A stretch of DNA of 64,000 nt from Yuukianura sp. NJ FZ-2021 (lineage: Eukaryota), in NCBI GenBank assembly GCA_046563655.1, contig CM102284.1, forward strand, positions 558,001-622,000. The letters run 5' to 3'. Position numbers and translations under genes: made by a program. How positions within the stretch are numbered: position 1 is the first letter of the stretch; every line of letters starts with the position of its first letter. The notes beneath the pieces are model-generated. The model was not told where the DNA came from and made no database searches. It saw only the letters and a program-made list of their open reading frames with translations. Of the stretch, positions 1,617 to 15,473 are shown piece by piece.

Positions 1617-4600
1617 TCACTTTCTGCCCACTGTGTCTCCACTGCCTTTCAATTTGTTTCCGAGTGCCGCTGCAAGATCAATTCCCGTCAACCCCTTCAC
1701 TGCTGGATTCAAAGATGCAATCGTCTTCGTCAACTCACCAGTCAACGAACTTCCATCTGCAACAACAAAAATAAAATTTTGAAAAACTTTTCGAAAAAAA
1801 AAATTTCTTTCAAAAATATTTTTTTTTGTCTGAATCACTTCGAGGTCCTCCTCTTTTCACGTCACTTTCCCCCACACGCAAGTCCAAATGTGCAAAAACT
1901 TTCACAAAAACTATCGATTTTGGCAAATCACTTCCCAACTTTCACCCAGCCACACAAAAACAGAAACCAAAACAAGAAACGCTAGTAACTTAGGCTAGGT
2001 TACAATATTTTTGAAACTCAATTGAAATTCTGAAATTTTGAAACTCTAAAACGTAATTTTAACATTATGAAACGCCAACACATCAAAACACTTTCTCTGG
2101 TAATCACGACTTTCACGTATTTACTCATCGGAGCAGCAGTTTTCGATTCTCTAGAATCAGAAAATGATGAAAAGAAAATCGAATCTCTCAAAGGTAAAAC
2201 TGACCTCAAAACATCATCCATCAACTTAAAATATCAAAATTTCGAAATCAAAATTTCAAAAATTATGATTTTTCATGAAATTCAGAAATTCGGGCCGACC
2301 TACAGCGAAAGTACGGCATTACAAACGACGACTATGCTTGGATAGAACAAATGGTAATAGAAACAGTTCCACATAAAGCTGGACCTCAATGGAAATTCGC
2401 TGGAGCCTTCTATTTTGCCACCGTAGTCATGGCAATGATCGGTAAAACTACAAATTAAGTTGACCTTTGACCTTGAAATGACCTTTGACCTTTTCAGGTT
2501 ACGGTCACTCCACTCCCTCAACAATGGCTGGTAAAGCATTCTGCATGCTGTATGCCATAAGCGGTATACCCCTTGGCATGGTCATGTTCCAGAGCATTGG
2601 AGAACGCTTAAACAAAGGCGCCTCTATCATCATCTCCAAGGGCAAAAAAGTATTCAAGTGCAAAAAGACAGAGGCAACGGAAGTGTTAGCACTTAAACAT
2701 ATAATTAAATATATAAATGAATAAAATATATAATAATAATATATAATTAGTTATATATTATTTCCAGTAACTTGATGATGCTACACGGTATGCTGTCCAC
2801 AATCATCATGACACTAGGCGCCTACGTCTTTTCACAGTACGAAGGTTGGTCCTACTTTGACGCCATCTACTACTGCTTCATCACTCTCACTACAATAGGG
2901 TTCGGAGACTACGTAGCACTACAGGTTCATAAAATTTCTCAAAATTTTGAACAAATTCAAAATTCAAAATTTTCAAAATTTCGAAACTTGGTGAATCCTC
3001 TAGAACGACCATGCCCTACAACGGAAACCCGGTTACATTATCATCAGCGTCGTTTTCATTCTTTTCGGCTTAGCCGTTTTTGCTTCCAGCATCAACATTC
3101 TCGTTCTGCGCTTTATGGCAATGTAAGTCACTTTTGACCTTTGACCTCTCGAGTGACCTTGACCTTTTGCCCTTTTTTAGGCAAACGGAGGAAATGCAAC
3201 GAGAGGACACGGAACTAGGTCCAGTGAGTCAGCATGTCGTAACTGTTGACAGCGAGGCAATGTCGCCCACAGAACGACTCATTCACAGCGATTTTGCAGC
3301 GACCAGAAACAGTCAAGACACGGTCAGCGTCTGTTCCTGTACCTGCTACCCTCGCTATGTAATTCCACTTTTCAAAAACTTTTTGAAAAAAAATATGGTC
3401 GAAATTTTTTTCTAAAATTTTGAATTCCAGACGGACATTAACTCCTTGTACAAGAAAAAGAGTCGGTCCAGTCGTATTTTCAAGAACGACACGAGTGGAA
3501 CCGAAGAGGAACTGTACAGTGCCGACGAAGTTCCAGCTATCATTGAAAAACGCGCTTCTGTTTAAAAATCTTCCATTTCCAAAAAAAAAGTTTTCCAAAA
3601 ACTAACTTTTTCAAAAAATAAACCCAAATTTCATTTTTTTTACCCGGATTTCCTCCAATGATAACAATTTCTCCAGTTCGGGCCAACGGAGCAGCAACTT
3701 CTGCAGCAATTTGCGGCAGAGCTTGAGTAATCATCGCAGCAATCTAAAATTTCAAAAAATGTCAAATTTTTAAAAAAAATCCAAAATTTCAAAAAACTCA
3801 AATTTTTTAAAAAATCCTTACTCCAGCCGTTCCAAAAGTAGAGTATGCAGCGGCTTTTTGTCGCATTGCTTCTGCTTGTGCTTTTCCCACAGAACCGATT
3901 GCCTCTGACTCGGCTTGTCCAATCTTCCGAATCCTTTCTGCCTCTGCTCGTGCTTCCTCAAGCGTCTGAGTTCTTTTTCCCTCCGCCAGGGTTTGAACTC
4001 GGAACGCCTCTGCTTCGGCCGGAAGCTTAACCGATGCGACCAAATCTCTCTCCTTACGCTGCACTTCCTGCTCCTCCACTTCAACCATCTTCCGACGCTC
4101 AATCACATCCCCCATCATCTCCTCCTGCTTCAACTTCTGAGACACTTTGGCAGAGGCTAACTCAGCAGCCAATGCAGCTCTGAAAAAAAAGTTCAAAATT
4201 TCAAAAAAATTCATTTAAAAAAAATGCAAAATTTCATAAAAAAGTCACTCACTCTGCTTTGGCCGTATTGATTTCCTTGTCGAACGCTGATTGCTGAAGT
4301 TTGAACACACGGTAACAATCTTCCACTTTTGTGTCAGTGGAGTACTTGACGTCCATTGCGGCCTTGTCACACTCAGATTCCTATAAATTAAATAAAATAT
4401 ATAAAACAATAAATGAATAATATAAATAATACAAATACTCCTGTTGTTATTGATGTCTCAACTTACGCGAATTCCTGCATCACGATTGGCCTGAGCCACA
4501 CCGACGTCAGCGTCTCGCTTTACACAAGCAGTTTGAGCTCTTCCTAAAAACACAAAGCAAACCAAAATTAAGAATGAAATTTTAAAATTTTTAAAAATCA

Positions 4601-13600: not shown

Positions 13601-15473
13601 CTCCGGTAGGAGAAAATCTTCAAGATCATATTGCCTTTGGAGGTCTCGTGTTTCTAGTCGACAAACCAATTTCCATGATGCAATCTCGTTATGAAAACTT
13701 AAACTCGGTCATTCAGTATGCAATGTACGGAGCTGGACCACTCACGATCCTTGGAGGGGTAGAAGGCCTCGCTTGGGTCAACACCAAGTACGCAAATGCC
13801 TCTGACGACTTCCCGGATGTCCAGTTTCACTTTGTCGCTGGATCGTAAGAAAAACGTTTTTCACATTTTCCAATGCATTCACCAATCTTCCTGTCGAGAA
13901 TGAATGCAATGCACTTTGAACAGTTTTGAAACTAGAAAAACGCTGTTGCCAATTTTCCTCAACTAGAAAAACGTTGTTGCCAATTTTCCTCTCAACTAGA
14001 AAAACGTTGTTGCCAATTTTTCTCAACTAGAAAAACGTTTTTGCCAATTGCCAATTTCCCTAAATTCGAAAAACGTTTTTGCCAATTTTTCTGAGCTGGA
14101 AAAACGTTGCTGCCAATTTCCCAGTCAATACAAAAATATTTCCCGTCAGCTGTTTTTCTCTTCGGTTTCAATTTCAATGAACTTTTCAGGTTTGAATGCC
14201 CGGGAATTTTTGAATTTCGGAAAAGTGTTTTCTGTCACGCGATTCAAAATTAACATCAACATATGTTCTCTGACTGTAAAATTACTGTTGTAAACAGGGC
14301 AACGTCGGACGGAGGGCGGCAAGTGAAGAAGGCTCATGGAATCAGCGACCGCGTGTACAACGAAATGCTGAAACCCATTCAGTACAAGGATACTTGGTCC
14401 GTCTTACCAATGATCCTAAGGCCCTATAGCAAGGGATACCTCAGACTCAAAAGCACTAATCCCTTCCACAAAGTCCTCATTTATCCTAACTACATAGTCG
14501 GTAAGACACTAAACAAAGCAGAAAGCAGCCCAGTAGAACCAACCAATCAGAACGTGTTTCGCAATGAGAGGTTCTACTGTATACAAATTCAAAATCCTTC
14601 ATAATTTCAAACTTTACTGGCAATAATTCCAGATGACCGAGATGCAAAGATCCTGGTAGAAGGAACTAAAATTGCGATAGCCATGAGTCAAACTACGGCC
14701 TTTCAAAGATTCAATTCCCGCCTCAATCCTAATCGAATGCCCGGTTGTAAGCACTTGGAGCCCTGGTCTGATGCTTACTGGGAATGTGCTGTCAGGTACT
14801 AATAGTCCAAACATAAACACAATTACATTAAATATTACACAAATATTACATAAATACTTGATCAACTTTTTATGCAGGCACTACACAGTAACAATCTACC
14901 ACCACAGTGGAACAGCCAAGATGGGCCCACCAAATGACCCCACGGCAGTAGTTGACCCCAGACTGAGAGTCTATGGAATTCAGGGACTCAGGGTCATCGA
15001 TGCATCCATTATGCCTAACGTCGTCAGTGGGAATACAAATGCTCCGACGATTATGATTGGAGAGAAGGGAGCTGACTTGATCAAAGAAGACTATGGAGAA
15101 TCAACACAACCAATTCCCCCGCCCCGGATGCCATGAACATAAAAACACAAATGTAAAGTCATGAAACTGTGGCACTCCAACATTTAAATGTTTGCACTCT
15201 GAATTGTTATACTCTGAAGTTGCCAAAACTAGTTAGTTATACTCTCACGACGATAACCCCGCCCCAGTTTATACTCTCAAAGAGTTATACTGAAGGAACC
15301 AACTACAACTGATGAAATTAGAAACACTATGCTAAAACTAACTTATACAAATTAAGAGATAAGTTTTATGTAATCTACGTAAGTAATTAAGAAATAAACG
15401 GCGCAGCGTATTAAGTTGACGTACCTGACACAACCAGTGCCTCATTGGGGCCGCATGTATAGATATTTCCCAT
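1617..15473 (-). CDS. Flo2: Flotillin-2 (reggie-1), 10 coding exons, ~434 aa
   Basis: Exons 15425-15473, 7937-8031, 7661-7862, 4846-4876, 4639-4763, 4467-4543, 4253-4380, 3822-4179, 3644-3743, 1617-1756, all GT-AG and phase-compatible (1305 nt). Translation [21 protein letters not shown]...[19 protein letters not shown]...[53 protein letters not shown] is typical flotillin-2. Confidence 0.97.
2067..3565 (+). CDS. Task7: TASK-type two-pore-domain K+ channel (Task7-like), nested antisense in the last flotillin-2 intron
   Basis: Exons 2067-2193, 2286-2441, 2498-2684, 2768-2924, 3004-3122, 3181-3358, 3431-3565. N-terminus [37 protein letters not shown], pore 1 VVMAMIGYGH, pore 2 [12 protein letters not shown]-terminal KRASV*. 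Confidence 0.92.
5240..7583 (+). CDS. GMC oxidoreductase (glucose dehydrogenase-like) #1, nested antisense in flotillin-2 coding intron 3
   Basis: Approximate exons 5240-5408, 5475-5664, 5727-5874, 5984-6466, 6543-6733, 6794-6892, 7009-7583. [15 protein letters not shown] motif, [45 protein letters not shown]; hydrophobic N-terminus. Confidence 0.95.
8185..8452. repeat. Degenerate tandem repeat, ~6 copies of core TTTTCATAA-N-GATAGTTACTCCCTC, 44-53 bp period
   Basis: The core recurs at about 8193, 8246, 8299, 8348, 8392 and 8437 in flotillin-2 intron 1. Confidence 0.8.
9030..9106. repeat. Three copies of GTCACGTAAGCCAAA, 31-bp period
   Basis: Copies at 9030, 9061 and 9092. Confidence 0.75.
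10822..11890. repeat. Dispersed ~110-bp direct duplication (about 10822-10940 and 11775-11890)
   Basis: Shared GAATCCTC...TTTGCTTTCA(G/A)GG...CACAAAAA...AAAATTCCC...GTGTGAAAATTC...TTTTTCCCCTTT. Confidence 0.65.
12035..15136 (+). CDS. GMC oxidoreductase (glucose dehydrogenase-like) #2, nested antisense in flotillin-2 coding intron 1
   Basis: Starts [31 protein letters not shown]. Contains [62 protein letters not shown]; stop at 15136; multi-exon with GT-AG introns. Confidence 0.95.
13930..14120. repeat. Minisatellite of ~31-33 bp (AACTAGAAAAACGTTGTTGCCAATTTTCCTC), ~6 copies, in a GMC #2 intron
   Basis: Directly visible tandem units. A second, more degenerate ~32-bp array lies at about 12810-13100 in another intron of the same gene. 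Confidence 0.8.

Follow-up and report, generated by a model that had tools for sequence, protein, structure and literature searches.

Human NF1 (EVI2A, EVI2B and OMG) and Drosophila dunce are known hosts of nested genes. In the insect TipE cluster, according to the available parts of its description (PMC3240667), complete genes likewise lie in host introns, mostly on the opposite strand and with no obvious functional tie. The closest described system is the nest of GMC oxidoreductase genes within flotillin-2 (Flo-2) of insects. Iida 2007 (PMC1891103) treats four insects; in these, a single Flo-2 intron houses the GMC cluster in antisense to the host, and the exon beyond the cluster encodes the first 16 residues of FLO-2. 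The cluster is described there as a tandem array of ten or more GMC genes of subfamilies alpha to kappa in conserved order, with the alpha type at its 5' end. Here, we describe the Flo-2 locus of a 64-kb window, by which we mean the whole stretch of DNA analysed (Yuukianura sp. NJ FZ-2021, GenBank assembly GCA_046563655.1, contig CM102284.1, positions 558,001 to 622,000). We consider it probable that this springtail-like Flo-2 splices across three independent antisense nested genes: a conserved GMC gene in intron 1 (GMC2), an old GMC paralogue in intron 3 (GMC1) and a lineage-specific TASK-type K2P channel gene in the last intron.

The window is AT-rich (31-46% G+C in 2-kb bins) and contains no N. 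Host exons were located using stop-to-stop frames and minus-strand translations, which yielded flotillin-like pieces from position 15473 to position 1617 (Table 1). The resulting Flo-2 model lies on the minus strand, spans ~13.9 kb and comprises ten coding exons; its coding sequence of 1305 nt specifies 434 amino acids with no internal stops. All nine introns are of the GT..AG type. In order, they measure 7393, 74, 2784, 82, 95, 86, 73, 78 and 1887 nt, the long ones being only the three that carry passengers and the remaining six being 73-95 nt. The passenger genes were built from frame-compatible GT-AG junctions, with six of six introns of this type in each. Altogether, the four models have coding sequences of 1305, 1059, 1854 and 1863 nt and GT-AG borders in 27 of 27 introns. 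The models show four complete, conserved reading frames with canonical splicing, and no passenger extends beyond the host intron that contains it.

The 31-nt microexon that forms exon 4 was added because a direct join of exons 3 and 5 broke the reading frame. It is the only one of five pattern matches in 1500-16000 that is flanked by AG and GT. An earlier note on this DNA had placed three complete antisense genes in three Flo-2 introns, and the gene models bear out both its coordinates and its intron assignments. The end exons that it had proposed match exactly and are colinear with homologous proteins. Its placement of GMC1 in coding intron 3 still holds with the microexon added, which lies downstream of GMC1. 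In the unoccupied part of intron 1 (8032-12034), tblastn with GMC, K2P and flotillin sequences gave no further match and no gene was found. Over positions 1-16500, Rfam and tRNA scans revealed no RNA gene, and a tandem-repeat scan returned short AT-rich arrays only.

The identity of the host was evaluated by exon and over its full length. Exon 8 matched Flotillin-2 in PDB with an E value of 5.8e-25 (residues 238-354), as compared to 3.7e-16 for Flotillin-1. Its database relatives were a Logan protein (76%), then Orchesella cincta (69%) and insects (58-64%), with flotillin-2 as the name given. Pfam matched none of four single-exon flotillin pieces; full-length homologues carrying PF01145, the Band 7/SPFH domain expected at the N-terminus of flotillin-2 (reggie-1), are colinear with exons 1-7. 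Full-length flotillin-2 proteins of insects and springtails align colinearly to the host exons, exons 1 and 10 included. The predicted N-terminus has an MG start and a GGCCG cysteine cluster, which we take to be acylation sites, and is 88% identical to that of Bacillus rossius across exons 1-2. At the C-terminus, the annotated Flotillin-2 of O. cincta (P0009) joins the equivalents of exons 9 and 10, and the C-terminal type of exon 10 is also found in two relatives known from metagenome contigs, L020 and L021. Logan protein P0001 is spliced across exons 5-9, then reads beyond the end of exon 9 (..GGNKGELYTSFFPFK) with no equivalent of exon 10; its last intron may have been retained, or its 3' end may be an alternative one.

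The passenger in the last intron encodes a channel with two pore domains and IGYG and IGFG filters. Pfam Ion_trans_2 was detected on two of four K2P exon pieces, namely exon 3 (1.5e-6) and exon 4 (3e-12). The best matches in PDB were KCNK9/KCNK3 (TASK-3/TASK-1; E values of 8e-15 to 9e-14), as compared to 4e-8 for KCNK10 (TREK-type) and 1e-5 or weaker for others, and the named best matches were sup-9, KCNK9 and Task7. The YGH that follows the first filter aligns to residues 96-98 of KCNK9, and the histidine after the first GYG is presumably the TASK proton sensor. The C-terminal ends are EKRASV in the model and IKRASV in D. busckii Task7. Over 308 amino acids, the model is 78% identical to Allacma fusca P0127, with which it is colinear over five junctions, and it is 61% identical to D. 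busckii 'Task7' (P0130). Judged from these sequence features, the K2P passenger is a member of the TASK subfamily. A jgi protein, P0122, is identical to the model at 143 of 145 positions and colinear over the exon 2-3 and 3-4 junctions, an indication that the gene is transcribed and spliced in the modelled form in a very close relative.

The K2P introns measure 56-92 nt, and the gene sits 78 nt from host exon 9 and 311 nt from exon 10. The known TASK channels (human KCNK9/KCNK3, Caenorhabditis elegans sup-9, Drosophila Task7/CG9361) likewise have two pores; the YGH is matched in KCNK9 and the KRASV end in D. busckii Task7. What differs is the genomic home of the window gene, as the literature searched included no report of a TASK gene within flotillin-2. 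The pairing of the names Task7 and CG9361 rests on one database listing. In D. melanogaster, Task7 is on 3R and Flo-2 is on X.

For the GMC genes, four of six pieces matched Pfam GMC_oxred_N or GMC_oxred_C, one matched generic dinucleotide-binding families only and one had no match. The E values for the N- and C-terminal domains were 1.6e-25 and 3.4e-38, respectively, in GMC1 and 5.9e-34 and 9.5e-23 in GMC2. Both proteins carry an N-terminal GxGxxG dinucleotide-binding motif. The identity between GMC1 and GMC2 is 62.6%, and each shares 60-67% with its closest insect and crustacean proteins among the 25 best rows per gene. GMC2 is closer to springtail proteins: 80.5% to Allacma fusca P0257 and 80.4% to Orchesella dallaii P0260. 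Among 173 columns that are invariant in 27 insect and crustacean orthologues, GMC1 keeps 164 and GMC2 keeps 168. Pseudogene status of the passengers was rejected on the grounds of the intact frames and of the retention of 95-97% of the invariant GMC orthologue columns.

One of six intron positions is identical in GMC1 and GMC2 (the KYFK/KSEDN junction, phase 0) and one more differs by 7 nt, which indicates extensive intron turnover since the duplication that gave rise to the two genes. GMC1 has serine at two cysteine columns (..RCNWPRG.. and ..GSRCS..; 5727-5740 and ~6200) that are invariant in 27 of 27 orthologues and kept in GMC2; the pair of substitutions may represent the joint loss of a disulfide pair. 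No third GMC gene was found in the 64-kb window using tblastn; the earlier note had described the GMC set as two genes separated by two host exons.

Many of the insect 'proteins' listed as P0241-P0262 are 1000-1900 amino acids long and correspond to fusions of two or three neighbouring genes of the GMC cluster. These are gene-prediction artefacts, and their summed scores put them first in searches. The input for the GMC trees consisted of 26 named single-unit proteins (of 120 listed), 12 units from six fused predictions, and the two window proteins. A quick tree was built from all 40 rows and a careful tree from 38, two long-branched Diamesa units being left out. A protein library clustered at 50% was set aside as a source of GMC1 orthologues because orthogroup members more than 60% identical would collapse to one representative.

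In the careful tree, GMC2 groups with the Allacma and O. dallaii proteins (100/100). Both window GMCs fall in a group of 31 rows (80/86) together with an insect clade (100/99), decapods (100/100), branchiopods and copepods. This group is nested in a clade of 34 rows (100/99), with four 'second units' of fused insect predictions outside. The insect clade includes a bee protein, P0350, whose N-terminus is near-identical by eye to AmGMC_A1 in the available part of Additional file 8 of Iida 2007. The motif DWQYKTE, present in GMC1 and GMC2, occurs twice among the sequences listed there, in DmGMC_A1_CG9503 and AmGMC_A1. On this phylogenetic evidence, GMC1 and GMC2 belong to one insect-plus-crustacean orthogroup, which we read as GMC-alpha. 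The earlier note had foreseen an assignment of the two genes to insect subfamilies; they do not fall in two different ones but in this single alpha-like orthogroup.

The locus resembles the insect nest in one intron and departs from it in the others. Because exon 1 comprises 16 codons plus 1 nt, GMC2 appears to lie in the intron homologous to that of the insect cluster, and in both cases an antisense GMC gene, here read as alpha-type, follows a 16-residue exon. The likeness to the insect arrangement that had been pointed out before is thus borne out by the exon described in the available parts of PMC1891103. However, the insect intron holds a tandem array of many subfamilies, whereas intron 1 of the window holds one GMC gene. 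Similarly, the insect cluster lies in one intron, whereas GMC1 occupies intron 3, with host exons 2 and 3 between GMC1 and GMC2. A third intron of the window is occupied by a non-GMC gene, the TASK channel. The whole locus is ~14 kb, as compared to an intron of 83 kb in D. melanogaster. In Bacillus rossius and Frankliniella occidentalis, an alpha-like GMC and flotillin-2 are on contigs of equal size (135,635,846 and 1,911,596, respectively), which fits the linkage of GMC-alpha and flotillin-2 expected in insects. As compared to the TipE, NF1 and dunce nests, the window has a small host, set in a genome that is very compact, whose three occupied introns hold three passengers from two unrelated families, and every passenger has its 3' end packed closely against an exon of the host.

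Among named organisms, springtails (Allacma, Orchesella) come closest for three of the four genes. To extend the comparison to unnamed relatives, metagenome contigs were scanned once with exon 8. This yielded 53 loci, mostly spliced, cDNA-like sequences or distant taxa. Using tblastn with the four window proteins, GMC was found in one of the 53 loci (L020) and K2P in none. A quick, query-anchored flotillin tree of 28 rows combined the window with 17 of the 53 loci and 10 of 120 proteins. In this tree, the window, L001, L020, L021, O. cincta and Logan P0001 form a clade with 100% support in the Shimodaira-Hasegawa-like approximate likelihood ratio test (SH-aLRT), and the window groups with L001 at 95%. 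The springtail-type clade therefore includes three of the 17 loci in the tree (L001, L020 and L021). Loci L017, L026 and L047, which have little or no intron 1, group with non-hexapods and were set aside.

Contig L020 (3798 nt) starts inside the first exon of a minus-strand GMC gene that is 58% identical to GMC1 and 45% to GMC2. This exon ends at the codon position and phase of GMC1 intron 1; GMC2 has no intron there. The start of the L020 gene is ~690 nt upstream of flotillin exon 4 and antisense to it, the equivalent distance in the window being 364 nt. In L020, only ~160-180 nt make up the last flotillin intron, and exons 4-6 are apparently one fused open frame. In contig L021 (4471 nt), 94 nt separate exons 3 and 4 and the last intron is ~80 nt; the 1.09 kb that precede exon 2 include neither a GMC nor exon 1. 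In L001, the 540 nt upstream of exon 4 resemble neither a GMC gene nor, at the DNA level, the window. Outside this clade, flotillin-2 (P0024) and TASK (P0234) of Scaptodrosophila lebanonensis, the one insect with contig sizes listed for both, are single-member clusters that each occur on one contig, and these contigs differ in size (5,797,927 and 7,533,819, respectively), and the alpha-like GMC and TASK of Blattella germanica and of Cryptotermes secundus are on contigs of different size.

These comparisons separate the three passengers by age. The intron-1 GMC is probably the shared, ancestral part of the nest. The intron-3 GMC appears to be old and lost in some lineages, because it is present in both branches that arise from the clade's deepest split and is missing in L021. 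TASK is absent from the last introns of L020 and L021 and is unlinked to flotillin-2 in S. lebanonensis, so parsimony favours its gain in the window lineage; from this distribution, the channel looks like a recent, lineage-specific arrival. The choice between an ancestral and a lineage-specific arrangement, as it had first been framed, therefore splits by passenger: probably ancestral for intron 1, lineage-specific for TASK, and for intron 3 shared with L020 but not with L021. The proposed comparison of intron content likewise gave a mixed outcome, with a GMC1-like gene in L020, K2P in 0 of 53 loci, and no intron-3 GMC in L021.

A mechanism consistent with these data is as follows. The host would be transcribed from right to left, such that the polymerase reads all three passengers in antisense. 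The passengers would be separate transcription units, presumably with their own promoters and terminators, and would meet the host only at their 3' ends, with no functional tie required. GMC2 would be the resident of the insect-cluster intron and a GMC-alpha orthologue, in which case the nesting of GMC in Flo-2 would predate the insect cluster. GMC1 would be an old paralogue within this orthogroup that evolves faster and has ended up in intron 3, and the TASK gene would have entered, or been kept in, the last intron only in the window lineage. Genome compaction would suffice to account for the tight packing because other introns are only 56-120 nt long.

Several points weigh against our preferred reading of a Flo-2 gene with three independent antisense passengers of different age. 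The joins between exons 1 and 2, 3 and 4, and 9 and 10 are predictions from the DNA, as are the ends of the passenger transcripts, and the copy counts of GMC, TASK and Flo-2 cover the 64-kb window only. The K2P-in-intron layout is seen in one assembly. The springtail-type relatives L001, L020 and L021 are metagenome contigs. Of these, L001 is the closest relative (92% protein identity) and includes exons 4-8 only, making it uninformative on layout. We infer from position and orientation that the L020 GMC lies inside intron 3, as the contig stops short of exon 3. In the careful tree, GMC1 sits in a polytomy inside the 31-row group with an end branch of 0.56, and in the approximately unbiased (AU) test the joining of GMC1 and the GMC2 clade as one clade was not rejected (p 0.42). 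In the quick tree, by comparison, GMC1 was sister to the GMC2 clade with an SH-aLRT of 83; the weaker result was adopted. Finally, the label 'alpha' is based on the comparison by eye of one bee protein with a printed supplementary sequence and on a motif count.

More tentatively, the locus can be placed in a wider scenario, which we regard as possible but on balance doubtful. Springtails would keep the founding state: the ancestor of hexapods, or of pancrustaceans, would have had one GMC-alpha gene in the Flo-2 intron that follows codon 16, from which tandem duplication would have produced the insect cluster. The introns of springtail Flo-2 would have served repeatedly as a shelter, for the second GMC in intron 3 and, in one lineage, for TASK in the last intron, with poly(A) signals ~30 nt from the host 5' splice sites.

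Conversely, the small GMC set might be derived, an ancestral multi-subfamily cluster having lost or exported all but two alpha-type genes. We regard such secondary reduction as unlikely. It would account for the other insect GMC units (Blattella u1 with Cylas u1/u2; u2 units) that fall outside the insect-alpha/crustacean/springtail group: taken at face value, the tree indicates that these outside paralogues split before insects, springtails and crustaceans diverged. Export of the cluster also occurs, as the GMC cluster of one moth, Cnaphalocrocis medinalis, is not inside flotillin-2 according to the available parts of a 2025 paper (PMC12734113), and L021 indicates that passenger loss is possible. 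However, fast-evolving duplicates often drop outside a slow parent clade through branch-length effects, and the outgroup consists of 10 units only, all from fused gene predictions. The rest of the 64-kb window holds no GMC.

The 3' ends of the passengers bear on a further alternative, functional coupling. Downstream of each passenger stop codon, the first poly(A)-type hexamer on the plus strand lies close to a host exon (Table 1), and we infer that the passenger transcripts end at or just inside the host 5' splice-site regions. The room on the 5' side is larger: 311 nt for K2P, 364 nt for GMC1 and 4004 nt for GMC2 to the next host exon. Coupling would mean that host and passengers share regulation and that the fit of the 3' ends reflects an interplay of termination and host splicing. 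Shared regulation is called a 'more compelling possibility' in the available parts of PMC1891103. The first hexamers lie 27, 30 and 32 nt before host exons in a window where AATAAA and ATTAAA have a density of 0.0015 per nt per strand, the hexamer at 7631 being the sole one on the plus strand of intron 3. In addition, GMC-in-Flo-2 has been kept from springtail-type genomes to insects. Nevertheless, coupling is improbable in our assessment. The close relatives L020 and L021 are without one or two of the passengers, and this variable content argues against interdependence of host and passengers. TASK is not linked to Flo-2 in S. lebanonensis. Furthermore, deletion bias in a genome with introns of 56-120 nt would also press the ends of passengers onto the nearest constrained element.

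An artefact is scarcely credible, be it a K2P gene misplaced during assembly or an exon 1 or 10 that is part of a different transcript: the K2P placement does come from a single assembly, and Logan P0001 does read beyond exon 9 into the apparent intron with no exon 10, but exons 9 and 10 flank K2P in matching phase and jointly restore the conserved flotillin-2 C-terminus, these parts are also joined in the annotated O. cincta protein, the donor of exon 1 is strong and this exon matches the insect description in phase and length, the head-to-head arrangement of GMC1 and exon 4 recurs on the independent contig L020, and the window has no N.

If Flo-2 of the window does carry three independent passengers as proposed, the springtail-type alpha GMC in the homologous intron would push the origin of the nest back before insects and provide a simple outgroup state for the 'birthplace' hypothesis of Iida. 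The Flo-2/GMC nest is a textbook-style case of the long-term conservation of a gene cluster in a host intron, and in the open literature that we searched, subscription papers and bioRxiv supplements being outside its scope, it is described for insects only. That literature included no description of a non-insect Flo-2/GMC nest, nothing on gene position in work on Collembola GMC oxidoreductases, and no report of Task7 together with flotillin, in keeping with the earlier statement that Task7 was not known as a flotillin-2 passenger. The nest would also not be frozen: over short periods, passengers appear to have been acquired, relocated and lost, and this speaks against obligatory coupling. The TASK passenger and the ~30-nt spacing between hexamers and splice sites offer a possible handle on transcriptional interference in a compact genome. 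Views on the working of the four proteins are unchanged.

Table 1. Coordinates of the Flo-2 gene, its passengers, poly(A)-type hexamers and flanking genes in the 64-kb window.
Feature	Position	Strand	Remarks
Flotillin-2 exon 1	15425-15473	-	Met + 15 codons + 1 nt; donor CAG/GTACGT; 88% over 17 aa to Bacillus rossius flotillin-2 P0006
Host intron 1	8032-15424	-	7393 nt; houses GMC2
Flotillin-2 exon 2	7937-8031	-	88% to P0006
Flotillin-2 exon 3	7661-7862	-	78% to P0006
Host intron 3	4877-7660	-	2784 nt; houses GMC1
Flotillin-2 exon 4	4846-4876	-	31-nt microexon; encodes ..TLTVEEVYR..
Flotillin-2 exon 5	4639-4763	-	91-93% identity to homologues
Flotillin-2 exon 6	4467-4543	-	Translation, homologue alignment
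Flotillin-2 exon 7	4253-4380	-	Translation, homologue alignment
Flotillin-2 exon 8	3822-4179	-	Coiled-coil / flotillin domain; PDB Flotillin-2 match
Flotillin-2 exon 9	3644-3743	-	Translation, homologue alignment
Host last intron	1757-3643	-	1887 nt; houses TASK-type K2P gene
Flotillin-2 exon 10	1617-1756	-	Includes stop codon; springtail-type C-terminus; 77% over 35 aa to Orchesella cincta P0009
TASK/Task7-type K2P	2067-3565	+	352 aa; exons 2067-2193, 2286-2441, 2498-2684, 2768-2924, 3004-3122, 3181-3358, 3431-3565
GMC1, GMC oxidoreductase	5240-7583	+	617 aa; exons 5240-5408, 5475-5664, 5727-5874, 5984-6466, 6543-6733, 6795-6892, 7009-7583
GMC2, GMC oxidoreductase	12035-15136	+	620 aa; exons 12035-12174, 12264-12478, 12600-12754, 13117-13844, 14298-14500, 14633-14795, 14878-15136
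AATAAA	3617-3622	+	Putative poly(A) signal; 52 nt after K2P stop, 27 nt before host exon 9
ATTAAA	7631-7636	+	Putative poly(A) signal; 48 nt after GMC1 stop, 30 nt before host exon 3
AATAAA	15393-15398	+	Putative poly(A) signal; 257 nt after GMC2 stop, 32 nt before host exon 1
PPP-type Ser/Thr phosphatase	17.4-19.0 kb	+	Flanking gene
Sushi plus trypsin protease	25.9-27.2 kb	+	Flanking gene
KNTC1/Rod	35.9-41 kb	-	Flanking gene
C2H2 zinc finger	48.6-49.1 kb	-	Flanking gene
Ionotropic glutamate receptor piece	56.7 kb	+	Flanking gene
Cytochrome P450	59.8-61.3 kb	-	Flanking gene

The genes at 16000-64000 are unrelated to the nest. Within it, the short introns of K2P, GMC1 and flotillin exons 4-9 (2194-7936) are full of a near-palindromic, AT-rich unit, TTCAAAAT / AAAATTTC. 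In 2657 nt of short introns, the top 7-mers show a 6-10 fold enrichment over the window as a whole, and the unit is densest in the first 8 kb.

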